51,849 bases of DNA, from positions 1 to 51,849 of IMG/VR virus record IMGVR_UViG_3300003691_000008. One strand, given 5' to 3'. Positions 1-47,836 of this stretch are shown piece after piece. Source of the stretch: a virus. Taxonomy: Duplodnaviria > Caudoviricetes. Within the stretch, counting starts at the first letter, position 1, and each line of letters opens with the position of its first letter. The translations under genes were made by a program, and so were the position numbers. The notes under the pieces were generated by a model. The model did no database searches. It saw only the letters and a list, made by a program, of their open reading frames with translations, and had not been told where the DNA came from.

Positions 1-1
1 A

Positions 2-364: not shown

Positions 365-396
365 ATAGTCACTCTGTGCGCATTGAAGACGTTAGC
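365..396. repeat. Palindromic boundary unit (GTC-N17-GACGTTAGC) preceding module A
   Basis: ATAGTCACTCTGTGCGCATTGAAGACGTTAGC resembles the units at 5662-5697 and 47801-47836. Confidence 0.6.
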
Positions 397-409
397 ATTT
401 AATTATTTG

Positions 410-429
410 CCATATGTTTTCTAATGAAT
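410..429. repeat. Conserved 20-mer CCATATRTTTTCTAATGAAT, copy 1
   Basis: CCATATGTTTTCTAATGAAT; other copies at 5711-5730 and 7405-7424. Confidence 0.9.
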
Positions 430-598
430 TACGTCTGTTATTTACTTAATTTTATGTACAGCTCCACCAGAGGTTTACACTTTTTGCGAGAAAGAAGGCA
501 TAGCGCCATTTTTGTACTTAGGGTATAAAATCTAGTTCTTGTTAATTTATTGAGAATCATCGAGTTAACCGTTATTATTAAACTCAATAAATTATGAA

Positions 599-658
599 AG
601 GAGGCATGGTGCCTTGTTTAAATAGGGCACCATGCCTCCTAATAAGCTGTTATGTTGC
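599..658 (+). other. Hairpin plus attI-like junction at the start of cassette 1
   Basis: Perfect 15-bp inverted repeat AGGAGGCATGGTGCC/GGCACCATGCCTCCT, then AATAAGCT and the core site GTTATGTTGC (649-658). Confidence 0.6.
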
Positions 659-704
659 TAATGAAGCTGATTAGTCCTGATGTGAATGTTAAACCAACAA
701 GGAA

Positions 705-1238
705 GTGTTACAAATGATAGGTATTATTGCTTTTTCTATTCTCTTTATTTTAATTTATATGGTTCATCGCATTGCTAAACGTTTTTCAACTGATTTTTCA
801 ACTGATGATAATCCGAAATTACGGAAGCTTTTATATAGGATTGCACTAGGGTTTCTTATTTTTGTGCTAGTGGGTGATGAAATTATAGGAGGCACACAAC
901 TGGCATATTTTTGTCTTTCAGAACCAAAAAGACAAGTGTTTGTGGATGAACTTGAAGGTCGTACTATTCAAGGACGTAATACTACTTTTATTAAAGAATA
1001 CACGCCACTCGATATAGAAAAAAGGATAACTGAAATATTTGATATTAATAGCCACGAACTAGTGTTTAAAAGGTACTGGTATTCTGCTAAGGGTGGATGG
1101 CTGAGTCGTACAATATCTTTTAATGGAAGTAAAAACCCACTTTTGTTTGATGGTAATTGCTCTAACACTAAAAAACTTAAACAATTAAGATTAACAAATA
1201 AAATGAATTACATACGCACAGAATTGACGGCGTTTTAA
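705..1238 (+). CDS. Integron-type cassette 1: hypothetical membrane protein (2 N-terminal TM segments)
   Basis: 177-aa ORF with an AAGGAA RBS, bracketed by GTTATGTTGC (649) and its exact complement GCAACATAAC (1242-1251). Confidence 0.75.
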   Translation: MLQMIGIIAFSILFILIYMVHRIAKRFSTDFSTDDNPKLRKLLYRIALGFLIFVLVGDEIIGGTQLAYFCLSEPKRQVFVDELEGRTIQGRNTTFIKEYTPLDIEKRITEIFDINSHELVFKRYWYSAKGGWLSRTISFNGSKNPLLFDGNCSNTKKLKQLRLTNKMNYIRTELTAF

Positions 1239-1255
1239 CTCGCAACATAACTGTA

Positions 1256-1317
1256 AATCAATGGGGTCAGAGCGATTGATTTCTTTCCCTCACCAAAAGC
1301 TAACGTCAAAAAAGTGC
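1256..1317 (+). repeat. 62-bp direct repeat, copy 1 (AATCAATGGGGTCAGAGCGATTGATT...GCTAACGTCAAAAAAGTGC)
   Basis: 61/62 identical to 5619-5680; the two copies flank the Lamassu operon. Confidence 0.95.
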
Positions 1318-1345
1318 CTTGAGTTCAAATAGTCAGTGCAACACA
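1318..1345 (+). mobile_element. IS30-family-like terminal inverted repeat (left), no transposase
   Basis: CTTGAGTTCAAATAGTCAGTGCAACACA matches the reverse complement of 7345-7372 at 23/28; TTCAA-N4-TCAxTGCAACA resembles IS30-type ends. Confidence 0.55.
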
Positions 1346-1375
1346 CCTTAAGCTGACGTTAAGTTTAATGCTGCT

Positions 1376-1450
1376 ATTGGCAACTGTGAGCCTAAAGCAG
1401 TCATTAACTTAATTTGAGTTCAAGGTAACTTTGTGCCAACAATCGTCTTT
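1376..1450. repeat. Two degenerate palindromic units with an 18-nt spacer
   Basis: ATTGGC-N18-GTCATT (1376-1405) and AAGGT-N18-GTCTTT (1422-1450). Confidence 0.5.
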
Positions 1451-1721
1451 CGCTAACATATGATAAATATTCCCTTAGTCCGTATTTATATATTCTTTCT
1501 TATCATATTTGGTATTAGTTCCATTAATATAAAAACTGAGTGTTTTTACGTTAAATCAACAGCTTGATGGTTTAGCTATACCAACGGATGATATATCAAG
1601 CTAACTGATTACAAGTCCGCTACGTGGTATAGCTAATCCTACTAGTTATGCGGTTTAACAGTATGAATAATATCTTTAAATACAATAATAGCCCTATGAG
1701 TTTTCAACCCAATTTATTGCA

Positions 1722-3689
1722 CTAATTATATTTTTTCAGCAAAGCATTGGCTTTATTTGGCAAAAATAACACTCTATTCGTTTTTAATGTTTGAGGGTAT
1801 TTATTCAAACCTGTTGCAAGAATTACTTGATAATTCTTTTGATAATCATCAAGAGCTTCAAGTTTATTTATGCACTTAATTAAGTTATCTAGCTCTATTC
1901 CTGCTGTCTCTGGGGTATCAACAATTAAAAACTTAGGAAAAGCCACATCATCATATTTTAATGACATGTTCATCAAAGCAACATAGTACATCATTCTCAT
2001 AGATACTAATGAACTTGCTTCTCGGTATTCACCATCATTAATAAGTGGCAGGTAGTCATCTAAGCTTATACGCGCAGATCTACAATCTGATAATGTATCG
2101 GTCATTAATTCATTGTAAATAGCACTAAAAGCACTTACTTTGGTACTAACTTCTCTTTTTGTTTTTGATTCTAACTCTTTTCTTTTTAATTCTGCATCTT
2201 GCGCTTTAGAACGTTTAGCTTCAAAATCTTTTTGGAGTTTTTGAAGCTTGCCTTCGATTTCAATTAACTGTTCTAGTTTTCCACTATCCTCTCGAATATC
2301 AAGAATTTTATCATCAATATCATTGAGACTATCAATATCAATTTCATCATCAATTTTTTCAAGATTTTTTCTTAGGCCAGACTTTAAACTAGGTAATTTA
2401 GCTGATAATTCTTTAGACTTACCCTTTTCCTGTTGTATATCCAAATTACAATCTGAGATGGCTAACTTTATAGTCGCTAACGTTTTAGTTTTTGATTTTA
2501 ATATTTCTTTATATTCTTGAGATGTATAAAAAAATCTTTCATATTGCTCTTCATTAATATCTGAACCACATACACATTTACCATGTCCTCTATCGACTTT
2601 TACTAAGCAGTATGGACAAGTATCACCAGAAAATAAATTTAATTGATCATGTGTATGTATTATTTTGCTAATTTGATTTATTTCACTGATGGTCTCATTC
2701 TGAATTGTAACTAATTTATATCTTTCATTATAAAGTGATAATAAAATTTCTTTTATATCCCCTAGCTCTAATTCTATTTCTATAATTTGGTTCTTTAAAT
2801 GCTCTATATTGGGCTCAACCGAAACTCGGCAATTTCGGTTCTTCTTAAATGCTTCTCTAGCAGCTTGCAATTTTTCTAACTGAAGATCATTAGCACGCTG
2901 CTCATTTTGAAGGAAATTAATGTTTTTTAGCTCACCATCACCTCTGATTTTGTCGGCTAGTAATGAATATTCATTTACCAAGCTTTTAGCTACATTCTTA
3001 TCTTTATCTTTTGTTTTAGCATCAACGATAGAGTCATAGTATTCAGAAAATGATTTACCGATTAATAATTCAAAAATAGCTTTACGTAAAATTTCAGAAT
3101 CAGACACATGATTTTGCTTGATATCTATTTTTTTATAAATATATTCTGGATCTGGCTGTTGATCGTGATACATCAATCTGAAGAGATCGGTAGAGTTAAT
3201 TTTGAAGGTGGAATACCCTTGATAAATTTCAACTACAGAAATACCAAGCTCTTTTAATAACCAGTCAGAAAAAGTATATGGCGTATTTTCTCTACGATAT
3301 ATTGGTAATATAGAAGTGTTTTGAGCATATTTATCTGTGGAAAATGTAATATTTCCATTTTCGGGATCTATTAATTCATCATATTCTGTAAGTGTTACAT
3401 CATTATCATTCAGATATCTTCGTAATTGGTAGTTTCCAACAGAAACCGATATATATATTTCAACGTAATTATTTGTATCTGAAGTTACTTCTTTGTGTTT
3501 TTTCTTTTCGCTATCTTTACGAAATTCTTCAACTCTACCGCCAAAAGCATAGTAAATTAAGTTACAAAGAGTCGTTTTTCCAGTACCATTATCACCTTCA
3601 ATTAATACAATGTTTTTGTCAAAAATTTCTGACTCAAAATGATATTTGTCTCCAGAATAGATAACTTGATTGACTCTTAAATAACCCAT
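1722..3689 (-). CDS. lmuB: SMC/Rad50-like ABC ATPase, Lamassu LmuB / ABC-3C ATPase
   Basis: Walker A GDNGTGKTT, long coiled coils, central CPYC zinc hook, Walker B LIVDTP; last gene of a tight 3-gene operon. Confidence 0.85.
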   Translation of the reverse strand: MGYLRVNQVIYSGDKYHFESEIFDKNIVLIEGDNGTGKTTLCNLIYYAFGGRVEEFRKDSEKKKHKEVTSDTNNYVEIYISVSVGNYQLRRYLNDNDVTLTEYDELIDPENGNITFSTDKYAQNTSILPIYRRENTPYTFSDWLLKELGISVVEIYQGYSTFKINSTDLFRLMYHDQQPDPEYIYKKIDIKQNHVSDSEILRKAIFELLIGKSFSEYYDSIVDAKTKDKDKNVAKSLVNEYSLLADKIRGDGELKNINFLQNEQRANDLQLEKLQAAREAFKKNRNCRVSVEPNIEHLKNQIIEIELELGDIKEILLSLYNERYKLVTIQNETISEINQISKIIHTHDQLNLFSGDTCPYCLVKVDRGHGKCVCGSDINEEQYERFFYTSQEYKEILKSKTKTLATIKLAISDCNLDIQQEKGKSKELSAKLPSLKSGLRKNLEKIDDEIDIDSLNDIDDKILDIREDSGKLEQLIEIEGKLQKLQKDFEAKRSKAQDAELKRKELESKTKREVSTKVSAFSAIYNELMTDTLSDCRSARISLDDYLPLINDGEYREASSLVSMRMMYYVALMNMSLKYDDVAFPKFLIVDTPETAGIELDNLIKCINKLEALDDYQKNYQVILATGLNKYPQTLKTNRVLFLPNKANALLKKYN

Positions 3690-4204
3690 GTTTTTATGCC
3701 TCGTTCCCTGTAGATTTTACCTAACATAGTATCCAGAGTAAGTGTTGATAGTCGTTTTATATTAGTTTTCAAACTGTTTAAGTTATTATATTCTTTTCCA
3801 AAAACTTTTTTATCAAAGAATGTTTTTGGTAGGTTTTTCTTATTTAATGATACGTTCACTAGCGATGAAATATTTCCTTTTTCCAGAGAGATAAACCCTT
3901 TTTTCTCTAAAGTAAAAAGTAATTTCAGAACCTCACTACGTCTCGTTAACCCATTGGAGTAGCTGTTAAATAAATATTCTTTATCAATATTGTTATGTGA
4001 TTCTGAATCTAAGTTATTTAATATGTACACTAGCCTTTCATCTTTTATAAAATCGATTATAAAAGCGAGCTTTCTGTAATCTTTAAAATATTTACCATCA
4101 TTGCATTTTAATGAATCTAGAGTAATTATTACTGCATAGCAAAATAGATAAAAATCTTCACCGGATAAGTACATTATTCCTTTTTTGACATTAATATTTT
4201 TCAT
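3677..4204 (-). CDS. ABC-3C middle component / LmuC-like small protein
   Basis: 175 aa lying between the effector and the ATPase, abutting one and overlapping the other; LFTLEKKGFI suggests a winged helix. Confidence 0.65.
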   Translation of the reverse strand: MKNINVKKGIMYLSGEDFYLFCYAVIITLDSLKCNDGKYFKDYRKLAFIIDFIKDERLVYILNNLDSESHNNIDKEYLFNSYSNGLTRRSEVLKLLFTLEKKGFISLEKGNISSLVNVSLNKKNLPKTFFDKKVFGKEYNNLNSLKTNIKRLSTLTLDTMLGKIYRERGIKTWVI

Positions 4205-5431
4205 TTATTTCTCGTCAAACGAAACAAAACAGCTATCAATCAAATCCATGACAACGCCATCAATTGTATTTTTATTAGATATTGTATAATTGTAGTCTTT
4301 TTTCAATTCTTCTATATGCTCAGATGATGCCGCATTTAACCCTTTAATCGTTGAATCTACTTCAGCTATAGAATTAGGCTCTGGAAAATCGTTATCGAAC
4401 AAATATTGATTACAAGCTTCATATGTTCGGTATTTAAGAGAGAGAAAAGACTTGTTGCCTGCTAGCTGTTCTACTTTAGAACGGCTAGCTAGTCGCGCCA
4501 AATGTCCCAGTTTTCGCTCAGGGTAATCAGGGCATACAGATATTATTTTTTCTGATAAGTTACGTTTATCCGTAATTTCTTTCTCTAAGGCTTCAATTGA
4601 ATTCCAAGTTGGATCAGTTGCATGATCTATTTCTTCGGACTCAGCTTCTTTAAAAACTAGCCTTACATCAGATGAATGAACAAACCTACCTGCATAACTT
4701 GAATTATTTTGTCTTTCATCAATAAGTTCCATCAATAAAGAAAATATAATTTCTTCTTTATTTGCTATTCTTGAATTGTATAACTGAGAGTTTCTTATTA
4801 AAGATAGGACAGTAGTTTTTAAATCTACTTCATTTTCTTCACCAAAATGCCATTTAATCCTATCTAAAAAATTTTTAAAATCGTCAGAATTAATAACTTT
4901 TAAAGTCTCAACGTGGCCATCAACTTTTTTATCTTGGTATTGCTTTGTATACTCTTCTAATACAATTGATTTTACGGTGTCAACCAGTTCTAGTGAAGTT
5001 GAATCATTACTCATTAAAATCGACAGGATTGGCTCTTTAGGTAATTTAATAATAGTGCCATTATCGAGCTTTGTCTTTTTTTCCTTTCCTATACCTGAGG
5101 TTGTATAAAAACCGAGGTTTAATTCATCACTAGCACGCCAAGTATTAATGTAAATATCAAAAAAACTGACTAATGTATTTTTAACTTCATTACTGAAAAT
5201 AGTAAAATTAGTCTTTGAATCATAATTTTTATCTTCTTCTACATATTGCGCTGACAATTCACTAGATTCAATTGTGTGGGAAATATCTTCGATGACTTCT
5301 ATTGCAGTGTAGAAAATAGAACTTTTTTTATGGTTTAAAGAATCAAGCATTAACTTGATGGCTCGAATTTTTTGTAGCCTAAATCCTTTTGACTTATCTG
5401 CCGCTTCGCGGTTGATTGTTTTATTTTCCAT
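4205..5431 (-). CDS. lmuA: Lamassu effector with Cap4/DUF4297-like PD-(D/E)XK DNase N-terminus (LmuA-like)
   Basis: AADKSKGFRLQ...IEVIEDI...VEEDKNY pattern; start taken at MENKT (ORF track starts at 5443). Confidence 0.75.
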   Translation of the reverse strand: MENKTINREAADKSKGFRLQKIRAIKLMLDSLNHKKSSIFYTAIEVIEDISHTIESSELSAQYVEEDKNYDSKTNFTIFSNEVKNTLVSFFDIYINTWRASDELNLGFYTTSGIGKEKKTKLDNGTIIKLPKEPILSILMSNDSTSLELVDTVKSIVLEEYTKQYQDKKVDGHVETLKVINSDDFKNFLDRIKWHFGEENEVDLKTTVLSLIRNSQLYNSRIANKEEIIFSLLMELIDERQNNSSYAGRFVHSSDVRLVFKEAESEEIDHATDPTWNSIEALEKEITDKRNLSEKIISVCPDYPERKLGHLARLASRSKVEQLAGNKSFLSLKYRTYEACNQYLFDNDFPEPNSIAEVDSTIKGLNAASSEHIEELKKDYNYTISNKNTIDGVVMDLIDSCFVSFDEK

Positions 5432-5576
5432 AATATATGTCAAGAGCCCTGCGCTAGTAATACTTAATGTTTTTGTTGTTATGTATCAATAATTAATATA
5501 ACACTTATGTCAAAATTTTGTCGATAATGAACTAATTAATTATTTGTGAATAAAAAGACCCTTTAGTTAAAAAAAC

Positions 5577-5644
5577 CAATGGGGTCAGAGTAAATCAATG
5601 GGGTCATAAAATCAATGTAATCAATGGGGTCAGAGCGATTGATT
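5577..5644 (+). repeat. Tandem CAATGGGGTCA iterations
   Basis: Three copies (5577, 5596, 5622) plus a partial ATCAATGT; the last forms an AATCAAT/ATTGATT hairpin. Confidence 0.85.
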
Positions 5645-5680
5645 GCTTTCCCTCACCAAAAGCTAACGTCAAAAAAGTGC
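5619..5680 (+). repeat. 62-bp direct repeat, copy 2
   Basis: 61/62 identical to 1256-1317. Confidence 0.95.
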
Positions 5681-5697
5681 GCATTAGAGACATTAGC
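5662..5697. repeat. Intact 36-bp palindromic boundary unit GCTAACGTC-N18-GACATTAGC
   Basis: 9-bp arms, complementary at 8/9; precedes module B. Confidence 0.8.
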
Positions 5698-5710
5698 CTT
5701 ACTTTTTTTG

Positions 5711-5730
5711 CCATATATTTTCTAATGAAT
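5711..5730. repeat. Conserved 20-mer, copy 2
   Basis: CCATATATTTTCTAATGAAT. Confidence 0.9.
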
Positions 5731-5741
5731 ATTTCATGTCA

Positions 5742-5765
5742 TGTTACTGAGCCGGCTCAGTAACA
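5742..5765. promoter_or_regulatory. Perfect 24-bp palindrome TGTTACTGAGCCGGCTCAGTAACA (candidate protein-binding site)
   Basis: Degenerate copies near 5836-5859, 5955-5977 and 7437-7459. Confidence 0.55.
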
Positions 5766-6012
5766 CACCTAAAGAACACCAATAAACGTATATTTGATTG
5801 ATCTTACTGTAATTAACACCGTTTTTTATAAGGGCTATTACTGCGTGGGCTTAGTAACATCCTATTTTCAATGGAAAATTCCGTTATTGTGGTTTCTAAT
5901 ACTTTGAATTTGTGGGATATTAATGTAAATTAATTTTAAATTATGGAATGGACATTATTGAGCCGGCTCCATAATAAGCTATTAGCTAGCAAACCCAAAG
6001 GTTGTCCAAATC

Positions 6013-6555
6013 ATGTCATTATATTTATATTTCCTGCCACCGATATTAGCTGTTATTTACAAGTGGCTGGAGTACGCTGGCATAATAGACAAATTAACTG
6101 GTCGAGGTTTAGCTTTAGATGGCCTTAAAAGGCTAAGATCTACATCAGGTTACCCAAAAGCTTGGATTTATAATAAAGATCAAGATGAAAAAATATTTAG
6201 AGCTATAGAGAAGCGAATCTCAAAAAATACAGACCAACCGATTATAATTTCTGCAATAAAAAATGGTTTTAAGCCAAACCTCATTTCAGTTGGCGGAAAA
6301 CCTACTGAGATTGAAGGCTTACCGACTGAGTGGCCACAAGCTGAAAGGTTCTCATACTTACCAAATCAACCTGTACTTTATTTTTTTGAAGTTCCTAAAT
6401 CAAAAACTGGTACAAAATGTGACAGAGCTTGCACGTTAGATGAATTGGATGGTTGGTTAAAAGAAGAAAAAGATAATAGAACCTTTTGGCTCGGTACATT
6501 TCTTTTAGGTGTGATTTCTATCACTTTCCTTTTAGTTAGGCTAAATATTGCTTAG
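6013..6555 (+). CDS. Integron-type cassette 2: hypothetical protein with N- and C-terminal TM helices
   Basis: 180 aa; starts after ATTAGCTAGCAA (5981) and ends at complementary TTGCTTAGCTAAT (6548-6560), followed by an attC-like site. Confidence 0.75.
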   Translation: MSLYLYFLPPILAVIYKWLEYAGIIDKLTGRGLALDGLKRLRSTSGYPKAWIYNKDQDEKIFRAIEKRISKNTDQPIIISAIKNGFKPNLISVGGKPTEIEGLPTEWPQAERFSYLPNQPVLYFFEVPKSKTGTKCDRACTLDELDGWLKEEKDNRTFWLGTFLLGVISITFLLVRLNIA

Positions 6556-6650
6556 CTAATAAGGAAATCAAACGGACACGCAACTGTTGGCTGCGTTTCG
6601 CTACACAATCTTAGCCAACTATTACTTAGCCTGTTATTTAGGCTTTATTC
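6554..6650 (+). other. attC-like site (97 bp, degenerate cores)
   Basis: AGCTAAT...internal GTTGGCT/AGCCAAC stem...GGCTTTATTC; shares AACWGTTKGCTG, TTAGCCAACTA and GGCTTTA with the split site at 8302/47324. Confidence 0.75.
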
Positions 6651-6664
6651 ATAAGAAGTAGACT

Positions 6665-7285
6665 GTGAGTAAATTTGATATAAAAGTACAAATGAATCCT
6701 GTAATAATGTCCATATTAGCCTTGTTAGTTTCATTCATTGGTTTGTTTTTTTCGTACCAGGCTAATGATTTAGCAAAAGAGCAATACCGACAAAGTAGGT
6801 TAATTGTTTTAAAAGCTGATTTTCTAAAACAAGATGATACCTTTATTCATGTTGAACCTATTGATGGCAATACTCATTTTATACGGGGAACTGCTTATTT
6901 ACCTCCTGTGATTCATAAAGAAGAAGTACCTATTGCCTCTAATGGTAATATTTTACACATGGGTTCTATTAGTTCAGAAATTAAAGATCATTTTTTAACT
7001 TACGTATCTTCTGAGAAAGGTATAACTAAAATATCAGAGGGAGATATCCCTGTTTTAATCAAATCATACTATGTATCGAAAGGTGTCGGATACACAGATA
7101 TATCGTTATATATGCTTGGCATGCAAGTCATATTAACGGAAGAACAACATGCGAGGCCAAAAATACAATTTACGAGCTTGGCATTTATCGAACGTTATAA
7201 CGAACTCAATGATATTAACTATGAAATGCTGGATGCTATGGTTTCAAGTGAAAAAGGATTTCAGTTACCTATCAATAAGCCTTAG
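6665..7285 (+). CDS. Integron-type cassette 3: hypothetical protein with N-terminal TM anchor
   Basis: 206 aa; TTTATTCATAAG (6644) complements CTTATGTATAAC (7288-7299) at 10/12. Confidence 0.75.
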   Translation: MSKFDIKVQMNPVIMSILALLVSFIGLFFSYQANDLAKEQYRQSRLIVLKADFLKQDDTFIHVEPIDGNTHFIRGTAYLPPVIHKEEVPIASNGNILHMGSISSEIKDHFLTYVSSEKGITKISEGDIPVLIKSYYVSKGVGYTDISLYMLGMQVILTEEQHARPKIQFTSLAFIERYNELNDINYEMLDAMVSSEKGFQLPINKP

Positions 7286-7323
7286 AACTTATGTATAACA
7301 AGTGACTATGGTGAGTTATCAAT

Positions 7324-7340
7324 ACAAAACCTAATCCGAA
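7324..7340 (+). repeat. 17-bp direct repeat ACAAAACCTAATCCGAA, copy 1
   Basis: Identical to 47765-47781; both copies follow a truncated attC. Confidence 0.8.
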
Positions 7341-7344
7341 AAAT

Positions 7345-7372
7345 TGTGTTGCACTGACCGTTTGAAATCACA
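7345..7372 (-). mobile_element. IS30-family-like terminal inverted repeat (right), no transposase
   Basis: TGTGTTGCACTGACCGTTTGAAATCACA, followed by GC and the right half of a palindromic unit (GCTAAGCG-GACTTTAGC). Confidence 0.55.
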
Positions 7373-7404
7373 GCGCTAAGCGGACTTTAGCATCAAATTT
7401 TTTA

Positions 7405-7424
7405 CCATATATTTTCTAATGAAT
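7405..7424. repeat. Conserved 20-mer, copy 3
   Basis: CCATATATTTTCTAATGAAT. Confidence 0.9.
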
Positions 7425-7518
7425 TATTCGTGTCATATAACTGAGAAGTCTTAGTAACAGCCCGAAAGTAACACATTTATTTTCTAAGTAATTATTTTAT
7501 ATTTACACTCAATAATAA

Positions 7519-7534
7519 CTGTATAAATACATAG
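7519..7534. promoter_or_regulatory. LexA-box-like site
   Basis: CTGTATAAATACATAG, one mismatch to CTGT-N8-ACAG, inside the module C leader. Confidence 0.45.
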
Positions 7535-7749
7535 TTTAATCGAGTTTCCCCTATATTCAGGAAAATAAGCAAATTGCGCATTTTCGTCCGTTGATAATTT
7601 TAAAAGTGCTTTAACTAGAAAAGCTATATTGAATTTGCTATTAATAGTGAAAGTAGAAAAGTGCGCGACTTGTCAGCAGAAATATGCGCAACTTGCGCAA
7701 CTTGCGCATTATTAAATTGTTATGTTTTTAGTATTCTTCGAGGGAGCTT

Positions 7750-8307
7750 ATGAATAAATCAATATTAATAAATGTGACTGCAGTTGTAATATCAATCTGC
7801 GCATTGACCCTATCCCTTAAACAAGCACAAGAAGCTGAAAAAGTAAGTAGTGTATCTGTGTTTCCTCACATAGATATAACTATGGTTGGAGGTAAAGGTT
7901 CAGGACAAGAAAACGGAATTCGTTTAGATAACGCAGGAACGGGGCCAGCATTAATTGATGACTTTAATTTGTATGTTGATGGCAAAATAATAAAAGGAAA
8001 AAAGCATGAACTTTGGTGGGATGCACTGATAAAACTAGGCTTTACCCCACAAGAGATTTATGACTTCAGAACCTTTTATTTTACGAATACTGCAGCTTTA
8101 AAAGATGGTAATGTGTACTATTTGATAAGACCAAAGTTAATCAATAATGACGAATTTAGAAGCCTAACAGAGTACGAATGGGATAAGTTGCAGAAGCTGA
8201 CTATAAGAATTGATTATCACGGTGCTTTTGGCGACAAATGCTATGTTACTTACACTCCTGCGAATAAAGGGAGTGCTATTGAACGCACCGAGTGTATAAA
8301 AACATAA
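7750..8307 (+). CDS. Integron-type cassette 4: hypothetical protein with N-terminal TM/signal segment
   Basis: 185 aa with a GGGAG RBS; GTTATGTTTTTA (7719-7730) exactly complements TAAAAACATAAC (8297-8308). Confidence 0.8.
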   Translation: MNKSILINVTAVVISICALTLSLKQAQEAEKVSSVSVFPHIDITMVGGKGSGQENGIRLDNAGTGPALIDDFNLYVDGKIIKGKKHELWWDALIKLGFTPQEIYDFRTFYFTNTAALKDGNVYYLIRPKLINNDEFRSLTEYEWDKLQKLTIRIDYHGAFGDKCYVTYTPANKGSAIERTECIKT

Positions 8308-8379
8308 CAAGCTAATTAATAAGGATAAAAAACAGTTTGCTGTTTTCGTCCCTCAACATTTTAGCCAACTAAATTTTGC
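8302..8379 (+). other. attC-like site, left part (interrupted by the prophage)
   Basis: ACATAACAAG...AACAGTTTGCTG...TTAGCCAACTAAATTTTGC; continues at 47304-47324. Confidence 0.8.
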
Positions 8380-8467
8380 TGATACAGAGAGAGAAAAGAA
8401 TACAAGAAAACAGAGATAAATGTGAAATTTTGTGAAATTGTGCGGAATTGAATGATTTAGTATTTGC

Positions 8468-8498
8468 AAAAGACTTTCATATGCTGAAAGTCTTTTTT
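8468..8498. terminator. Bidirectional intrinsic terminator at the end of the early operon
   Basis: AAAAGACTTTCA-tatgc-TGAAAGTCTTTT with A/T tracts on both sides. Confidence 0.75.
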
Positions 8499-8508
8499 GT
8501 TGGGGGAT

Positions 8509-8847
8509 TTAGAACAATTGGGGTTGGAGTTTATCCCTTTCTTCTTTACTAGCAATTTTTATAACTCTATAAACATGCGTTGTAGACATATTGAACTCTT
8601 TACCTAGTGCAACATGGTTACTACCCGTAAATGCTTTATATATAGCATGGTGTTTCATTATTGCATTTGTTTTTCTACCATAAGCAAAATAGATATGCTC
8701 GCCACCAAATTGATTACGTAGTTCGTCGCATACCTCAGTTGCCATTTTTTCAGCGTTATCTTTATCAACGCCAAATTTAATCAAGTTCTCCTCTATGTGT
8801 AATAACAATTGAAATACAAACTCGGCAGAACGTTCGGGTAAGCTCAT
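8509..8847 (-). CDS. mor: Mor/C-family transcription activator
   Basis: FGGEHIYF...IYKAFTGSNHVALGKEFNMSTTHVYRVIK is the Mor/C pattern. Confidence 0.9.
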   Translation of the reverse strand: MSLPERSAEFVFQLLLHIEENLIKFGVDKDNAEKMATEVCDELRNQFGGEHIYFAYGRKTNAIMKHHAIYKAFTGSNHVALGKEFNMSTTHVYRVIKIASKEERDKLQPQLF

Positions 8848-8852
8848 AGTAA

Positions 8853-9784: not shown

Positions 9785-9993
9785 GATTTTCTCTCCGCTA
9801 GAAATTTTTTGTCTGCTTCCTGCTCAGCTTCAATTATGAGATGACACTCAGAGCAATATTGGTACTCTTCAGTATCTGCATCATGGTGCCAGTTATGCAT
9901 CGCTAGAAACTGTTCAATAGTATCAGTCCCTGTAGAATCAATGCTTTTGAAGCAATTGAGAGCATCACAGTTAATGGTTGTTTCAATAGACAT
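9781..9993 (-). CDS. Small Cys/His-containing phage protein
   Basis: 70 aa with CDALNC and YCSECH; overlaps the gemA start. Confidence 0.6.
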   Translation of the reverse strand: MSIETTINCDALNCFKSIDSTGTDTIEQFLAMHNWHHDADTEEYQYCSECHLIIEAEQEADKKFLAERKS

Positions 9994-9995
9994 TA

Positions 9996-10241: not shown

Positions 10242-10288
10242 AATATTCTCTGCTTATATAAGGTATGGCTTTCGCCGTTGTTTCACCC

Positions 10289-10316: not shown

Positions 10317-10334
10317 ACTGGTTATTAGTCAAAA

Positions 10335-10610: not shown

Positions 10611-10636
10611 ATTAAATTCCCCTTGAGGATTGAGTG

Positions 10637-12983: not shown

Positions 12984-14762
12984 TTAGCTGTTAACGAGTT
13001 TTAATGCTGGAGACTTAACGCGCGTTAACTCGTCTACAATGCGCGGTATATCTTCAACAAAAACTGCTTGGTATTGTGCCAATGCATTAATATCGCGTGG
13101 CTCTAGGTCACGGCCTAAGTTCTGCATTACGGCACGTTTAAGCTCTAACGGGCTTAATGGCTTAGCGGCTGTGGGTACAAACTCGGTTGGCATATCAAAC
13201 TGCGAGCCTTTCGGGGTAATCGCGGCTGGCATATCAATAGCGTTAAGTTGGCTAATGGCTTTAATCTCGCCATTAAACGGGGTGGTTTTTTTCTTCTTAG
13301 CTTTATCGATCTCTTCATCAGTAAGGTTTGGATACGCAACGCGGTCCATCACTTTTTGGTTAGTATCAATAACCGTATCTTGCTTCGTATCAAAACCTTC
13401 ACCAAACACAGGTGAATCGGCTCTAAAGCCAGCTGCATCAAACTCAAGCGGTGCAACTTCATGTAAAACGTTATCACCAGACTTATTAGCTATGGTTACT
13501 AACACCTTGCATTCATCGTTTATAACCAATGGGCTTACAGAAACTTTTAACCCTGCAAAAATACCGTCTAAGTTAGCCAGGCTATACGTGAGTTTCTGCT
13601 TAGCAACCGGATGGCGAAACGATATTTCTAAATCACCTTTAACTAAACGCGTTACAGGCTCATGCGTAAAAATATAACGACAGTAATCTAAGTCAGGTAA
13701 CGCACGTAAATGCTGAATATTCTCGCTTTGCATAATGGTTAGCCAAGCATCAGTACGTGCCATGCCGTGGCGATTATGTTTCGCGTTATAGTTAGGGATT
13801 AAATTAGCGTTGTAAGCATTTTGCCACTGAACAACCGCTTGGTTCAGCTCCTCAACACTATTCACCGCTTCAAGAAACAAACGACCTTCAAAGAGTTTTT
13901 CAACTAAATCATTCGCTTTTTCTACCGCCCCAGTAGCACGTGCTAAATGCGTGGTATGGGCAATATGGTCAACCTTCAAACAACCAAGCGCATGTTTAAT
14001 CGCTTTACTGGTCATGGCGCTACCTTTATCCCAATACACATAGCGTGGCAAACCATGGTATGGCGAGCCAGATAACTTGCTCCAACCAAACAATAAAAAG
14101 TCATAAAGTATTTGCTGATTCTCACCTGCTGATTCAAAATACTTCACTGTGATCAAACCGCTAAAATGGTCAACCATCACATAGCGCCAAACACGTAACC
14201 GCTTTATTTTTTCAAGCATTTCAGGTTTGTTTTTATACTGCTCTTGCATCGTGGTGTACTTTTGAACTTTCATACCCTTCTTTTTACCCGGGGGGTAATA
14301 AAGCACACACATTGACGCATCAGCCAAATGCACATGATTGGCATGTAAGCTTTTAAAATGACCGTGAGTAGTGTCTTGCTTGGCTTTTTTAGCAGTCATG
14401 TTATTGTCTCGCAGCAAACGGTTTACATTGCTAGTGCTGGTAAACTTGTGACCATTTTGAGATAACACACTAATCAGGTTAGGCGTTTCTAACAGTGTTT
14501 TACCATTGGCTCTAGCACTGGCTTTGCTGGCTGCAGCAAGTAAAGTTAACGATGCCATGTCTTGGCTAGTAGTCCCTGCATCAGCACGCGTTTTACGTCC
14601 AGAGCCACCCGTTAAGGTTTTTAATGTGCGGTAAAACTTATCTTTGCCCCAACCCAACTGAGTTAATGCGCGAGATAAAATAGCGCCTTTGGTGCCACTT
14701 TTAGCGTTATCAAGTTGCTGACCAAAATCAAGAACCATAGTGCGAGCTACATCAGAAATCAT
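12984..14762 (-). CDS. DDE transposase (MuA-like, B3/BcepMu type)
   Basis: RKTRADAG, HLADAS, VDHFSG, YWDKGSA and ATGAVEKAND give a D/D/E triad. Confidence 0.92.
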   Translation of the reverse strand: MISDVARTMVLDFGQQLDNAKSGTKGAILSRALTQLGWGKDKFYRTLKTLTGGSGRKTRADAGTTSQDMASLTLLAAASKASARANGKTLLETPNLISVLSQNGHKFTSTSNVNRLLRDNNMTAKKAKQDTTHGHFKSLHANHVHLADASMCVLYYPPGKKKGMKVQKYTTMQEQYKNKPEMLEKIKRLRVWRYVMVDHFSGLITVKYFESAGENQQILYDFLLFGWSKLSGSPYHGLPRYVYWDKGSAMTSKAIKHALGCLKVDHIAHTTHLARATGAVEKANDLVEKLFEGRLFLEAVNSVEELNQAVVQWQNAYNANLIPNYNAKHNRHGMARTDAWLTIMQSENIQHLRALPDLDYCRYIFTHEPVTRLVKGDLEISFRHPVAKQKLTYSLANLDGIFAGLKVSVSPLVINDECKVLVTIANKSGDNVLHEVAPLEFDAAGFRADSPVFGEGFDTKQDTVIDTNQKVMDRVAYPNLTDEEIDKAKKKKTTPFNGEIKAISQLNAIDMPAAITPKGSQFDMPTEFVPTAAKPLSPLELKRAVMQNLGRDLEPRDINALAQYQAVFVEDIPRIVDELTRVKSPALKLVNS

Positions 14763-39459: not shown

Positions 39460-39465
39460 AAGAGA

Positions 39466-42915: not shown

Positions 42916-42965
42916 TGTTATATCTTTTATCGTACACAAAATAACGCAATTCATAAGGTTTTAAC

Positions 42966-43478
42966 ATGAGTAATGTACTTCAAACCCTTTACGCCTCTGC
43001 CCCAGTAAATGATTTAATCATTCACACATTGGAGCTAAAAAACCCTGATTTTAACGTTGAGGGACATGTTGTCGGCTCGGTTCATTTAGTGCAAGGTTTT
43101 GATGATGTGACCGCCACGTTGGAAGATGCTACGAGCGCCACATTTAAATCGTCAGGGTTTGGTGTGTCATTGCCGCAAAAATCAATTAAAGGTCGTCAAG
43201 ATTTAAACTTTTCAATTGATAATGTCACCGGTGAAGTGCTTAAAGCCATTGATGCCGCCATTGAGGGAGGTAATAAAATCATTGTTATTTATCGCGCTTA
43301 TGCGGGCAGTGACTTAAGCGCACCAGGGCAACCCCCCATCGTTATGACAGCAACAGCAATTAAAGCGGATTTTTCTTCCGTTAGTATTAGTGCAAGCTTT
43401 CATGATTTAGTGAATAAAGCATGGCCGTTTCGTCGTTATACGCCCAACTTTGCACCGGGGCTTAAATATTATGGTTAA
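42966..43478 (+). CDS. DUF1833 tail tip protein
   Basis: LYASAP...HTLEL...QDLNFSIDNVTG...WPFRRYT..FAPGL. Confidence 0.85.
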   Translation: MSNVLQTLYASAPVNDLIIHTLELKNPDFNVEGHVVGSVHLVQGFDDVTATLEDATSATFKSSGFGVSLPQKSIKGRQDLNFSIDNVTGEVLKAIDAAIEGGNKIIVIYRAYAGSDLSAPGQPPIVMTATAIKADFSSVSISASFHDLVNKAWPFRRYTPNFAPGLKYYG

Positions 43479-43908
43479 TGTTGTTAATAATGTAGTTAAC
43501 AATAGTTTTGTTAGCCAACATTGGGCGGATAGTTACTTAACTATCCCTTATGTTGATGGTGGACGCGATCCTGTTATTGGTCTTGATTGTTGGGGCTTAG
43601 TGCGCGATGTATTGTACCAACATTTCAAATTACCTTTGTTAAAGGACTTTGGCGGTATTCATGCAGATGACAAAGCCAGTATGACGCGTGCTTATCGTCA
43701 CCTTAAAAACGCCTTTTCGCCTTGTAATCCAATAGAGGGGGCTATTGCGGCGGGGTTCAATGGTGACGCGTTAATTCATGTAGGCGTAGTTGTTGAAATT
43801 AACGGCTTGCATGTACTCCATACCAGCTCGAAGCATGGCATGAGTAAATGCAGTGTGCGCCGTTTTAATCGTTTATTCTCAAAAGTGAAATATTATGCTT
43901 ACAAGTGA
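43471..43908 (+). CDS. NlpC/P60 tail tip protein
   Basis: PYVDGGRD..GLDCWGLV...HVGVV...VLHT. Confidence 0.88.
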   Translation: MVNVVNNVVNNSFVSQHWADSYLTIPYVDGGRDPVIGLDCWGLVRDVLYQHFKLPLLKDFGGIHADDKASMTRAYRHLKNAFSPCNPIEGAIAAGFNGDALIHVGVVVEINGLHVLHTSSKHGMSKCSVRRFNRLFSKVKYYAYK

Positions 43909-46399
43909 AACCACAATATTAAAAAAAACTGTTAAACCGCAAATATTGGTTTTCCCAAACAAGTTGGATAATGAACTTTTTGAAACAAATAGTGGTGAAG
44001 TTGGGCAAACATTGCATAGCTGGTTAATTGATAACGTGCCTGCCTATATTGTGCAAGCAGTGCCATTATTTAGCGCTACGTTAAATAACCAGGCATTTGA
44101 GCAGACGCAATGGACGTCATATCAATTAAAATGCGGTGATACGTTAGCGTTAACGGTTGAAGCTAAAGGTTTAGTCATTTCCATGGCCATCATTGCCGTT
44201 ATTGCCGTTGGTGCGGCAGTGTATATGTCAAGTCAAATACCCGACAATTACAACAGCACAACGCCTGATGGCTCCTCTATTTATGATTCAAATGTACAAG
44301 GGAATAGACCACGTTTAATGGGGGTTATTCCTGAATTAGCCGGAAGACATAAAATATTCCCCGACCATTTAAACATGCCACGACGTGAATTCATTGATAA
44401 CGAACAATGGGTTTTCTTAATGTTAGCTGTGGGTGTTGGTGAGCATGAACTGAATGCAAATGAAATTTTTATAGGCGATACACCTGTTATAAATTATGCA
44501 GGTGATATTTTTTATGACATATTCCCACCAGGCGTAGATGTCACTAGCCATGAAGCCTTTAGAAATGTTTATACCAGTGCAGAGGTTGGTAGCACGTCGG
44601 GAACAGCTGGGATTGAATTGAAAGGCATAGTCTCAACCACCGGCGAAGGCTTTATTTGGACGTTTAATGGCAATACTATTACATGTTATAAAAAGCACAG
44701 TATACGCGGCTTAACTATGTTAAGAACCGAAACGTTCCCTTTTCCCGCAGGTAACATGATTACTATTACGGAAAGCGCCGCTAATAATGGCGACTATCGC
44801 GTAGTATCTGATGATGATTATAACGCCACGCTGCAAAAAGTAGATGCGCAAGGTGATGATGATAATTCGTGGACGTCATTTACTACCGCCTCTAAAGTTA
44901 CTGCGGTAATAAATGTTTCGGCGGGTGTAGGTGATGGCGAGTATAACGGCCCTTTTTATTCATGCCCTAAAAACGAAACCACTAACACTATTTGGTTAGA
45001 TTTTAAGTTGCCGCAAGGGTTAGGGGAAATATCAGACGAGGGTGATTTTTTAAGTCGAACTGTTAACATAAACATTCAATACCGAAAAGAAGGTGATATA
45101 GCGTGGACTGATATACCGTATTCCTTTACTAATTCAACCAATGACGAATTAGCTGAAACACTAAAAATTGATTTACCCAGTGCTATTCGCCCCGAAGTGC
45201 AGATAAAACGTGCTACAGGCGCAGAAGATGACACCCGTATTTATGACAAAGTTGAATGGACAGCGCTCAAGTCAGAATTAGATAGCGCCACCAGTTATGT
45301 AGACGTCACAACAATAGCGATTAAAGTTCGCGGCACTAATTCGTTATCAAACTCATCTGAGAATAAATTCAATGTAATTGCTACCCGTAAACTACCTATT
45401 TATATCGGTGGTGAGCAAAATGGCGGATGGACAGCGCCCCAAGCAACCACAGACATTGCCCCATTTTTCGCCCATGTTATTAAAGATGTAGGGCATAGTG
45501 ATCAGCAAATAGGGCTTGATGAAGTATCACGTTTACATAGTGTGTGGCAGGGCCGCAACGATGAATTTAACGCGGTCTTTGATAATGACAGCACCTTGTT
45601 TAATGTCTTAAAAAGAGTGTTGTCGGCAGGCTTTGCTGAGCCAACACTCGACTATGGGCAAATAATCCCCGTACGTGACGAGCCGCGTACGGGCTTTGAT
45701 TACATGTATCAGCCTGAGAACATGAAAACCCCGCTTAAGCGTGAAACAAAACTGTTTGACCCCGACGAGCCTGACGGTATTGAAGTCGAATATTTTAGTC
45801 ATATAACCTGGAAACCTGAAACCGTACTTTGTTTGCTGGGTGATGAATTAGGCATTAAACCTAAAAAAGTGCGTGCTTTTGGTATCACCAATAAAGCTAA
45901 AGCGTGGCAATTCGGTATGCGTAAACGCCGAGAAATACGTTATCGCCGCACTAAATATAATTTCACCACTGAAATGGATGCGCTTAACAGTAGTTATTTA
46001 AGTTATGACGCATTGGCCGACGACATACCAGGTTATTCGCAAACGGGTAAAGTGATTGGTGTTAAGGGTAGAGAACTTGCACTAAGTGAGCCGCTTGAAT
46101 GGAACAGTGGGACACATTTTATATCACTACGAAAACCCGATGGTACGTTATCAGGACCCTATATTTGCACCGTGAATAGTGTTGAAGACAGCGTACTACT
46201 AACAACCGACTTAGACTTTACCCCAGATTGTTCGGGCCGGATGGAATTATCAATCTTTCAATTTGGTGTGGCTAATAGATGGTGTTTACCTGCGCTAATC
46301 ATGGACATTAAACCCAGTGGCACAGAGAAAGTGAGCGTAACAGCCGTTAATTATGATGCTCGGGTTTATGCGGATGATGATAATTCGCCGCCTGTGTAA
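43895..46399 (+). CDS. Tail tip / host-specificity protein (J-like)
   Basis: IPELAGRHKIFPD, VIATRKLP, PVRDEPR, ends AVNYDARVYADDD. Confidence 0.85.
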   Translation: MLTSETTILKKTVKPQILVFPNKLDNELFETNSGEVGQTLHSWLIDNVPAYIVQAVPLFSATLNNQAFEQTQWTSYQLKCGDTLALTVEAKGLVISMAIIAVIAVGAAVYMSSQIPDNYNSTTPDGSSIYDSNVQGNRPRLMGVIPELAGRHKIFPDHLNMPRREFIDNEQWVFLMLAVGVGEHELNANEIFIGDTPVINYAGDIFYDIFPPGVDVTSHEAFRNVYTSAEVGSTSGTAGIELKGIVSTTGEGFIWTFNGNTITCYKKHSIRGLTMLRTETFPFPAGNMITITESAANNGDYRVVSDDDYNATLQKVDAQGDDDNSWTSFTTASKVTAVINVSAGVGDGEYNGPFYSCPKNETTNTIWLDFKLPQGLGEISDEGDFLSRTVNINIQYRKEGDIAWTDIPYSFTNSTNDELAETLKIDLPSAIRPEVQIKRATGAEDDTRIYDKVEWTALKSELDSATSYVDVTTIAIKVRGTNSLSNSSENKFNVIATRKLPIYIGGEQNGGWTAPQATTDIAPFFAHVIKDVGHSDQQIGLDEVSRLHSVWQGRNDEFNAVFDNDSTLFNVLKRVLSAGFAEPTLDYGQIIPVRDEPRTGFDYMYQPENMKTPLKRETKLFDPDEPDGIEVEYFSHITWKPETVLCLLGDELGIKPKKVRAFGITNKAKAWQFGMRKRREIRYRRTKYNFTTEMDALNSSYLSYDALADDIPGYSQTGKVIGVKGRELALSEPLEWNSGTHFISLRKPDGTLSGPYICTVNSVEDSVLLTTDLDFTPDCSGRMELSIFQFGVANRWCLPALIMDIKPSGTEKVSVTAVNYDARVYADDDNSPPV

Positions 46400-46458
46400 T
46401 GGCGTAATAAATACAATGTATTTACTAAGTAAGTATTAAATAACTCTTTGGAGGGTTT

Positions 46459-46878
46459 ATGGGTTTTTTTGATGGTTGGTTATCTGGCCCCGCTTCACCT
46501 ATTGAGGCAATAGGCAAAGCGGGTGATTCTTTATTTACTTCCGACGAGGAACGTTTGCAGTTAAGTAATGATTTAGAAGAGATAAAGCAAAAGCCGCATT
46601 TAATGCAAGCTTTAGCGAATGTTACCGCCGCAAATCATAGAAGTGTTTTTGTTGCGGGTGGCCGTCCGGCGCTTTTATGGGTTGCTGCGCTCGGGTTGTT
46701 TTTCTTTTTTCCTGTCAAATATGCTTTTGGCACTATGTTATGGATAAGGCATTCTTGGGATGCTGATAAGTTGTTAGCTTTTCCGTTTTCGGGGGATGGA
46801 TTAATGGAGTTGGTTGGCATGTTGTTGGGGCTTGGGCTTATGCGAACAGCCGAAAAATTAACAGGTAAAGCTAAGTAA
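46459..46878 (+). CDS. 3TM-family holin
   Basis: LFTSDEER, HRSVFVAGGRPALLWV, MLLGLGLMRTAEK. Confidence 0.85.
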   Translation: MGFFDGWLSGPASPIEAIGKAGDSLFTSDEERLQLSNDLEEIKQKPHLMQALANVTAANHRSVFVAGGRPALLWVAALGLFFFFPVKYAFGTMLWIRHSWDADKLLAFPFSGDGLMELVGMLLGLGLMRTAEKLTGKAK

Positions 46879-46890
46879 CCAAGCAGTGCA

Positions 46891-47142
46891 TTGTCATTGA
46901 AAACAGTGGGGTTTATGATCAGCAAAGATTACATTAACCACGAATTGATTTTCACAGGCTTTGGTTCAGATGGCATACACCTACTTTATAGAGAGTACAC
47001 GTTTAATGACATGGCTCGCACCGCATTTCAGCAAGAGTTGGTATACCCTATTAACTCAAAAGAAATAAGATTCAGGAATTACAATATTAAAGTAGCACCC
47101 AAACTACCATCAGAACTAACATACACGGTAATGTCTGAATAA
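46891..47142 (+). pseudogene. Probable C-terminal fragment of an accessory gene
   Basis: ELIFTG...LLYREY...DMARTAFQQELVY looks like a domain lacking its N-terminus; TTG start and no RBS. Confidence 0.4.
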
Positions 47143-47177
47143 GAATAAACCTGGGAAGCTGTTCAAAGATTAATTAA

Positions 47178-47209
47178 AAAGACCATCGAGCGTAAGCAAG
47201 ATGGTCTTT
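47178..47209. terminator. Hairpin/terminator near the prophage right end
   Basis: AAAGACCATC-N12-GATGGTCTTT. Confidence 0.6.
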
Positions 47210-47297
47210 CATTATGTGCAAAAGTGTTTCATTATACGCAACAATTAGTTTTCTCAGTTATCGCAGTTTTATAACTAAGTTTTCGCGCTCGGCATCA

Positions 47298-47324
47298 TTT
47301 TGCCCCTTAACGAGGGCTTTAGCA
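47298..47324 (+). other. Target duplication plus right part of the split attC
   Basis: TTTTGC-CCCTTAACGAGGGC-TTTAGCA completes a 99-bp attC with 8302-8379. Confidence 0.8.
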
Positions 47325-47339
47325 TTACTTGGAACATTT

Positions 47340-47750
47340 ATGGAAGAATCTAACTTTTTATGGGAGCACTTTAAGCTTCACGCAGATCAAAGAATTAAAG
47401 CATTTAATTTTTTTGTTATATTATCAATTTTTGCAGATGGTGGTGTGTTCACTGCTATAGCTAAAAGCTTCCCCCCATATTTGTTGATTGTCTTAGGTTT
47501 TTTTATAATCGTATTATCAGGAATTTTTTGGATACTGGATATCCGCTCTCATAACTTGGTAAAGCTCTCTTATAAAGGGCTTAAAAAATATGAATCATCA
47601 TTGGCTATTGAAAGTAGACTTTTTACTTTAGATTCAAGAAGGAAAAAAGGAATTTTCAGTTACACGAAAGCATTTGCACTTTTATTTAGCCTTCAAACTG
47701 CATTCGGCTTATTTGTTATGACACTAGGCTTGGTTAAAGCGTTATGCTAA
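47340..47750 (+). CDS. Integron-type cassette 5: 136-aa multi-TM membrane protein
   Basis: MEESNFLWEHFKLHADQRIKAFNFF..., about 3 TM segments; TTAGCATTAC at the start complements GTTATGCTAA at the end at 9/10. Confidence 0.75.
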   Translation: MEESNFLWEHFKLHADQRIKAFNFFVILSIFADGGVFTAIAKSFPPYLLIVLGFFIIVLSGIFWILDIRSHNLVKLSYKGLKKYESSLAIESRLFTLDSRRKKGIFSYTKAFALLFSLQTAFGLFVMTLGLVKALC

Positions 47751-47764
47751 GCACTTCAAACGGA

Positions 47765-47781
47765 ACAAAACCTAATCCGAA
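47765..47781 (+). repeat. 17-bp direct repeat, copy 2
   Basis: ACAAAACCTAATCCGAA, identical to 7324-7340. Confidence 0.8.
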
Positions 47782-47800
47782 GTCTCGATTGTCTTTAAAA

Positions 47801-47836
47801 GCTAATGTCTCGAATGTGGTAAATGTGATCATTAGC
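47801..47836. repeat. 36-bp palindromic boundary unit closing the cargo array
   Basis: GCTAATGTC-N18-ATCATTAGC, same geometry as 5662-5697. Confidence 0.7.

Follow-up and report, generated by a model that had tools for sequence, protein, structure and literature searches.

The usual picture of an integron is one integrase, one attI site and one array of gene cassettes, and clusters of attC sites without an integrase are common. The stretch of DNA described here, an entire record of a virus collection (IMGVR_UViG_3300003691_000008; 51,849 nt, hereafter the window), probably represents an integrase-less cassette array of a Colwellia-like bacterium, of the type called CALIN (cluster of attC sites lacking integron integrases), in which two kinds of joint are found: the integron crossover point G|TT and a 36-bp palindrome. 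Its sub-arrays start with what we call heads. A head starts with a 54-nt block, made up of half the palindrome, 19 nt and a conserved 20-mer, and continues with a leader and an attI-like core.

The arrays of CALIN and of sedentary chromosomal integrons are the closest described systems. They share with the window small promoter-less open reading frames (ORFs), each with an attC of the host type and no intI nearby, as well as defence genes among or beside the cassettes; one study reports defence cassettes in chromosomal integrons (10.1101/2024.07.02.601686). They differ in that here each sub-array has a leader-derived, attI-bearing head and a fixed tail, and heads recur in tandem and at several chromosomal places. 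The pdif modules of Acinetobacter are likewise discrete modules with accessory genes, stacked between short, partly palindromic sites by a recombination layer for which the modules encode no enzyme. Unlike the sites described there, the site found here is 36 bp long, has another sequence and no XerD-type arm, and lies in chromosomal cassette arrays. In insertion sequences (IS) of the IS91 family a transposase gene is linked with integron arrays, as with ISCR elements beside integrons, but the Colwellia element discussed below sits at one exact point of the 36-bp palindrome, not merely at a tetranucleotide, and is missing from the window. The Delta-attI-type cassettes of mobile integrons (PMC12901181) also carry attI-derived sequence into arrays away from intI; these are resistance cassettes with a partial attI, whereas here a whole leader with its attI core heads a sub-array. 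In the literature on Colwellia integrons, on orphan or solo attI sites and on integrase-less integrons we found no description of such heads, and no published description of the palindromic joint was found.

Heads and their attI cores

From left to right the window contains the end of a repressor gene, a gene fragment, head A with one cassette, a Lamassu-like block, head B with two cassettes, head C with one cassette whose attC is cut by a prophage, the rest of this attC, one more cassette and the closing palindrome. To the right of the array there is a 436-aa integrase-like ORF, then an acyl-CoA dehydrogenase gene. The features of the array are the following:

376 to 649, plus strand: head A, with the right half of the palindrome (376-396), the 20-mer (410-429), a leader and an attI-like core ending in G649|TT
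650 to 1255, plus strand: cassette A, ORF 705-1238 without a family match
1256 to 1317, plus strand: 62-nt repeat, copy 1, containing the left arm and spacer of the palindrome (1299-1313), 98% identical to 5619-5680
1318 to 5618, minus strand: Lamassu-like block with LmuB (1722-3689), a 175-aa ORF (3677-4204) and a 412-aa ORF (4205-5443)
5619 to 5680, plus strand: 62-nt repeat, copy 2, a direct repeat of 1256-1317
5662 to 5697, no strand assigned: complete palindrome of the GTGCGC type, GCTAACGTC-N6-GTGCGC-N6-GACATTAGC
5677 to 5981, plus strand: head B, with the 20-mer (5711-5730) and an attI-like core ending in A5981|TT
5982 to 6644, plus strand: cassette B1, ORF 6013-6555, complete attC 6550-6655 (covariance model R1, 68.9 bits, E 5.6e-14)
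6645 to 7319, plus strand: cassette B2, ORF 6665-7285, ending in a short attC-like site (7295-7319)
7320 to 7340, plus strand: X element, a recurrent tail sequence, start of the array tail after B2
7371 to 7719, plus strand: head C, with a variant half palindrome (7371-7391), the 20-mer (7405-7424) and an attI core ending in G7719|TT
7720 to 8379, plus strand: cassette C, ORF 7750-8307 and the first 82 nt of its attC (8298-8379; R1, 45 bits, E 3e-8)
8380 to 47297, no strand assigned: Mu-like transposable prophage of 38.9 kb inside the attC of cassette C (Mor, PF08765, 6e-23)
47298 to 47318, plus strand: rest of the attC of cassette C, with T47318 in place of the G expected from the attC alignment
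47319 to 47764, plus strand: last cassette, ORF 47340-47750 (8xMP family, PF24838, 1.5e-6, below cut-off)
47765 to 47836, plus strand: array tail, with the X element (47765-47781) and a GTGG-type palindrome (47801-47836)

The 54-nt block is common to 376-429, 5677-5730 and 7371-7424. It ends in the 20-mer CCATATRTTTTCTAATGAAT, which occurs at 410, 5711 and 7405 with zero mismatches (0.01 expected from 100 shuffles). An earlier note on this DNA had pointed out these three copies, the GAC located exactly 19 nt ahead of each, and the distances between 20-mer start and junction base (239, 270 and 314 nt), all of which we could confirm. The same note described three modules, each with a palindromic unit; this is true of the shared block, but of the palindrome module A contains the right half only and module C a variant copy, complete palindromes being found at 5662-5697 and 47801-47836.

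In public genomes, scanned for exact matches only and with one genome per species, the 20-mer was present in 68 loci, mostly of Colwellia and often several per genome. Since the scan demanded the exact 20-mer, its conservation among these loci is by construction. The scan did not impose the upstream sequence, yet the consensus of the 69 distinct copies keeps GTGCGC-N6-GAC-TTAGC upstream of the 20-mer, and GAC is exactly 19 nt ahead in 53 of the 69. The upstream block is absent from at least two loci (L026 and L062), whose 20-mers may be chance matches. Five relatives of head B identified by similarity give an unbiased view: the 20-mer is nearly invariant in them at 76-86% overall identity. The observation that the earlier note regarded as fatal to its interpretation, a 20-mer unconnected with integron features elsewhere, was not made, as the association with cassettes extends to many genomes.

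The leaders behind the block are related to the intI-attI region of true integrons. Positions 7495-7699 in leader C are 80% identical to DNA abutting the true intI of genome G156, and the alignment extends from near the intI start codon, past a degenerate LexA-box-like site (7519-7534), up to G|TT. Similarly, the leader of locus L042 shows 76% identity over 198 nt to the intI-attI intergenic region of genome G004, and the attI cores beside two true intI genes resemble the ends of heads. A fourth, degenerate copy of the 20-mer region (7474-7496, 87% over 23 nt) sits immediately to the left of the segment of leader C with a match in true integrons.

Copies of head A with 76-86% identity over approximately 351-662 were found in G163, G158, G197, G002, G196 and G165, and head B has many matches at 70-86% identity in Colwellia genomes. 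Five head B copies from other genomes align from GTGCGC to AAGCTG|TTA, and the sequences outside both points are unrelated. Contigs of other sequencing runs also diverge from the window, at 5677 (runs X5 and X10), 7383 and 391; stretches of the window that runs X7 and X10 do not cover were disregarded as evidence. The right-hand break of the heads is the classical integron crossover. The leader of head A contains a perfect hairpin (599-640, -20 kcal/mol, z -6.4) and head B three related ones (5744-5763, 5838-5857 and 5955-5974). A promoter scan yielded fewer sites than in shuffles, the only one within a head being at 550-578, and in an Rfam scan of window positions 1-8500 (E<=1) the heads were blank, the single match being a chance-level snoRNA. 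In locus L009 and in run X5 (joint 5730 to 8299) an attC start follows directly after the 20-mer and the leader is absent.

A profile search detected no integron integrase gene (TIGR02249) in the window, in agreement with the earlier note. True intI was present in all five Colwellia genomes first tested and, above the curated cut-off, in 43 of 55 genomes across the genus. In none of 30 true intI loci was the 20-mer (<=3 mismatches) or the palindrome found within about 1.5 kb of intI, thus the 54-nt block stands where intI would stand. The idea that the block is a remnant of the first intI codons was not supported: its alignments to three intI 5' ends scored like shuffles, z being below 1.5 in 22 of 24 local alignments and about 3 in the other two. 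Compared with a complete integron, the locus has no intI, and an attI with G|TT by homology only. Homology and distribution nevertheless support the view that the units are integrase-less attI platforms, as the term mini-integron platforms of the earlier note implied: leaders C and L042 match intI-attI regions up to G|TT, and attC sites of the Colwellia type follow. We infer that the G|TT joint would be an ordinary integron crossover, at which the chromosomal IntI present in most Colwellia would act in trans.

It is also conceivable that the heads are passive remains of integrons without intI, spread by homologous recombination and IntI, and that the palindrome and the 20-mer are a remnant or a protein-binding or regulatory site. 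Derivation of the leaders from true integron leaders would be expected under this explanation, IntI alone would account for the right-hand joint, the palindrome has no known enzyme, and the recombination points in the window are decaying. We nevertheless consider it improbable, because the 54-nt block is shared by several leader types that are unrelated to one another, and the many sequences on its left are unrelated as well, because the block has no significant likeness to intI 5' coding DNA, and because heads occur at several distant places on one 5.37-Mb contig. The tight constraint on the 6-nt spacer of the palindrome and the insertion of an IS at one exact spacer point in three of three copies, both described below, also argue against it.

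Cassettes, array tail and distribution in the genus

The attC sites were identified with a covariance model (R1) that we built from 20 sites, 17 beside the true intI of G004, one beside that of G005, one of locus L033 and one of the window. Nearly all of the 82 hits in the 68 loci were downstream of a head and on the same strand; hits on the opposite strand came only from L002 and L050, which carry the same sequence. The R1 hits 6550-6655 and 8298-8402 give the window what defines a CALIN, at least two attC sites with no intI nearby. Complementarity between the start of a cassette and the start of its own attC, the classical cassette signature, was found in cassettes A and C (TTATGT/ACATAAC) and, as the inverted repeat TTAGCT/AGCTAA, in B1; in cassette A the first bases TTATGT are complemented by ACATAAC at 1246-1252. 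A 25-nt attC-like mini-palindrome (ATAAC...GTTAT) stands directly before X in four places (7295-7319, L042, L053 and L054).

According to the earlier note the last attC was truncated. It is the attC of cassette C that is interrupted, by the prophage, whereas the last cassette has an attC start (from 47745) fused to the X element. The prophage has the Mor activator, a DDE transposase and the short target duplication of a Mu-like phage, although the rve-type transposase match (12984-14762) is weak (2.4e-4, below cut-off). The duplicated sequence at its two ends is TTTGC/TTTTGC (8374-8379 and 47298-47303), and deletion of the prophage with one copy of the repeat (junctions 8374-8380 and 47294-47303) restores a normal attC.

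The arrays end in a conserved tail, in which X comes after the last attC, with G|TT as its starting point. Where a palindrome is present, it is of the GTGG type and lies 44-45 nt from X in 40 of 45 cases. X may plausibly be what natively flanks the attI site on the right. In G163 several tandem head-led arrays of a 5.37-Mb contig are closed by X and the palindrome as in the window; head-led arrays lie at about 0.21, 0.90, 1.68 and 1.69 Mb, and no intI match was obtained in this genome at E<=1e-60. These tandem arrays with the same tail indicate that the layout is a standard Colwellia architecture found across the genus and not a peculiarity of this island. Beside an array tail of G163 (L141, 8851-8997) there is a dispersed repeat of about 150 nt; when an empty site was searched for, this repeat was responsible for most of the matches, which came from 40 of the 55 Colwellia genomes, often several from each.

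The palindrome as a probable second joint

Several observations support the palindrome (TAAYGWC-N6-GTG...) as a real, constrained junction motif. A 6-nt spacer was found in 78 distinct sites, versus between 1 and 8 for any other length in the range 2 to 14; it must be noted, to the detriment of this argument, that the loci counted were picked for carrying heads or the IS element, thus the count is biased, which the genus-wide count is not. The latter, with a strict GTGG-type pattern, gave 119 chromosome-wide hits in 32 of the 55 genomes, versus 7 with the reversed control. The motif has two types, GTGCG with 37 sites, 23 of them visibly followed by the 20-mer, and GTGG with 39 sites. The left flanks of the heads belong to several unrelated families, and left and right parts assort independently at the palindrome. 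A scan revealed no terminator-like sites at the palindromes.

If the palindrome were a short attC variant used by IntI itself, a single recombination layer would be sufficient. Its arms GCTAAC and GTTAGC do look like the outer attC boxes, and it lies inside cassette arrays. The attC covariance model did not detect it, its single strands fold weakly (-2.8 kcal/mol, z -0.5, for one and -4.7 kcal/mol, z -1.4, for the other), the second pair of boxes is absent, the right arm is usually ATTAGC instead of GTTAGC, and the IS inserts in the left spacer, well away from the G|TT position, hence we regard this explanation as very unlikely.

Equally little probability can be given to a dif-like Xer site, by which the modules would be a chromosomal counterpart of the Acinetobacter pdif modules, moved by XerC/XerD. 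The pdif modules are a known precedent, and GTGCGCAT at the centre of the palindrome resembles the XerC-binding arm of dif; but a XerD arm could not be recognised, the joints are located left of the XerC-like arm and not in the central region beside it, and GTGG-type sites lack the resemblance. A search for the true dif in five Colwellia genomes with two patterns gave nothing, or matches no better than the control.

One exact point of the palindrome is marked by a 2.55-kb element of other Colwellia genomes, which encodes a transposase of the Y2_Tnp/Zn_Tnp_IS91 type (PF04986, 5.2e-65, and PF14319, 1.1e-30, in locus L138) and a tyrosine recombinase of about 300 aa. It has the features of the IS91 family, a Y2 HUH transposase with a zinc-binding domain and no target duplication, the latter read at both junctions of three copies. 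In silico excision restored a palindrome with a 6-nt spacer in all three copies read at both ends, with the insertion point between the third and fourth spacer positions. In 16 loci close to the query the recombinase-side end does not vary and has different DNA beyond it, and in a seventeenth (L128), with a homologue of 36% identity, a related motif is found at this end. Insertion of IS91 elements is reported to occur without duplication beside a tetranucleotide such as CTTG or GTTC (PMC13181058). Such targeting alone would not explain one fixed point in a 36-bp site. Recombinases of IS91 elements have been placed in an IntI-like subgroup without the IntI-specific insertion in a preprint (10.1101/542381). 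Either enzyme of the element could act at the palindrome, with the element itself and perhaps, in trans, other units as substrates. Next to a head in L033/G168 there is a Xer-like recombinase that was considered as a cognate integrase of the heads; it turned out to belong to this element, and only one of the 14 genomes with the IS-borne recombinase has it next to the 20-mer, in two contigs that overlap. The two G168 copies were uninformative, being one region assembled twice (99.95% identity up to the contig ends).

The earlier note placed a Lamassu operon between modules A and B. LmuB is clear (PADLOC, 7.7e-61; Pfam AAA_23 and SMC_N below cut-off), whereas its two neighbours, the 175-aa and 412-aa ORFs, had no PADLOC match and no Pfam match above cut-off; the gene order fits that of Lamassu, LmuB with an LmuA effector and LmuC. 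The block is bracketed by the 62-nt repeats, each ending in the palindrome left arm and spacer, and the same 62-nt linker precedes heads in L022, L030, L060, L065 and L141. Brackets of this kind would be left by integration at the palindrome, and also by unequal recombination between linkers. Just right of the Lamassu block, at 5571-5632, the beginning of the 62-nt repeat, AATCAATGGGGTCA, is present in four partial copies in tandem. In a 47-nt inverted pair (1299-1345 and 7345-7391, 74% complementary, 6 kb apart) both halves adjoin a palindrome arm, and the two would pair into a long attC-like hairpin.

The earlier note proposed that whole attI-plus-cassette blocks and the defence operon are stacked at the palindromes. 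In its full form, with head, cassettes and tail, or the Lamassu operon, excising as circles and integrating at palindromes, this appears doubtful to us. Arrays do begin with a GTGCGC-type and end with a GTGG-type palindrome, as attL and attR would after integration, the Lamassu block has its 62-nt direct repeats, and the two ends of the IS element, when joined, form a palindrome-like junction. Run X10 has contigs with pieces of the stretch 5677-7358, which comprises head B, its two cassettes and X; one piece diverges at 5677, but these are short metagenome contigs, which cannot prove linkage. We saw no circular form and no empty site, and the cassettes of near-identical heads differ. Movement of whole modules is less likely than the existence of a second recombination layer, which remains, in our opinion, the best reading of the anatomy: we find it plausible and would put it somewhat above even chances, although no event was caught.

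The preferred reading, with a second layer at the palindromes, can be outlined as follows. The array lies between phage-like genes and was interrupted later by the Mu-like prophage. Its three heads combine the 54-nt block, a leader from the intI-attI region of true integrons and an attI core ending in G|TT or, in head B, A|TT. Cassettes with Colwellia-type attC are placed after this point, and each array ends in X and the palindrome left arm. At the second joint, left and right sequences assort independently around the 6-nt spacer, and heads, head-led arrays and the Lamassu block would have been juxtaposed by site-specific events at palindromes. Anatomy, homologies and distribution are observed here, whereas action of IntI on the heads, recombination at the palindrome and the enzyme for it are inferred. 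A more elaborate two-tier system, in which mobile intI-less attI heads seed arrays that IntI fills in trans, and arrays and defence operons are stacked via the 36-bp palindrome by the IS91-borne IntI-like recombinase or the HUH transposase, is a tentative proposal that we would not expect to hold in all its parts.

A number of observations weigh against this reading. The gain or loss of modules at palindromes, which the earlier note expected in relatives, was not found in related genomes, and in isolate runs X5 and X6 the arrangement is that of the window; the part of its proposal that has fared better concerns the constrained motif and the exact IS insertion point. Four pairs of near-identical heads (88-97%), within and between genomes, have 339-377 nt in common and nothing downstream; as they share the head alone, the head, not the head with its cassettes, may be the unit. 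No related Lamassu DNA was detected in the 55 genomes, and because X5 and X6 are also unchanged there is no polymorphism to choose between integration and unequal recombination. The orthologous empty site for the first G163 array was not found, its flank consisting of other dispersed repeats, and none of 41 cases had an attI core joined straight to X, as an empty head would. The IS element is present in only 14 of the 55 genomes and absent from the window, and GTG[CG] was at the expected place in only 6 of 15 readable right junctions. The exact crossover cannot be fixed, the breaks between copies being scattered over the interval between the spacer and TTAGC, and the weak folding mentioned above belongs here as well. 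As to the G|TT joint, the G has been lost at 5981 (A), 6644 (T) and 47318 (T), whereas the five head B relatives have G at the attI point corresponding to A5981, and G is present at 40 of 41 distinct attC ends (single pattern, loci examined), the sole T being that of the window. With three recombination points lacking G, the array of the window may be frozen against IntI.

Flanking genes and significance

The array has the following neighbours:

2 to 193, plus strand: 3' end of a CI-like repressor gene (Peptidase_S24, Pfam PF00717, 4.3e-12), left neighbour, outside the array
195 to 331, plus strand: gene fragment, its match being the 3' end of a gene that is conserved in G141, G060, G058 and G101, four genomes of the family (78-85% identity)
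47873 to 49183, minus strand: 436-aa integrase-like ORF, right neighbour (Arm-DNA-bind_3, 4.7e-15)

The earlier note spoke of a yafJ island; we saw no yafJ, the gene on the left being the repressor. The full repressor gene, with HTH_3, is present in the metagenome contig L140, the sole match when metagenomes were scanned with cassette A as query. L140 is 100% identical to window 1-1536 and reaches 6 kb further left, where (L140 1-6285) it encodes a ParD/ParE pair, a P2-type GPA replication protein, AlpA and the CI-like repressor. Based on these genes, the array may sit in the cargo region of a P2/P4-like element. Alignment of the 195-331 fragment to the four genomes fails upstream of about 195, and no genome syntenic with the left flank was found among 151 genomes of the family.

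On the right, a palindrome at 47801 beside an island integrase had been claimed. The palindrome is there, but in the neighbouring ORF the catalytic domain of tyrosine recombinases was not detected by Pfam even at E<=1, and its NCBIfam match is confined to residues 20-143. A P4-type arm DNA-binding domain is present, and the product may be a diverged or disabled integrase. There is no direct repeat of >=10 nt linking window 1-420 to the DNA around this ORF, and no tRNA gene in the window.

What emerges is a genus whose integrase-less arrays have, besides a fixed tail and a second type of joint, attI-bearing heads of their own. Should the heads take up cassettes in trans, a single IntI could supply many arrays, and expression within a long array could start afresh at each head. 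Recombination at the palindrome, if real, would provide a mechanism for moving arrays and defence operons as blocks, and a function for the IntI-like recombinases of IS91-type elements, for which we found none reported in the accessible text of the sources.

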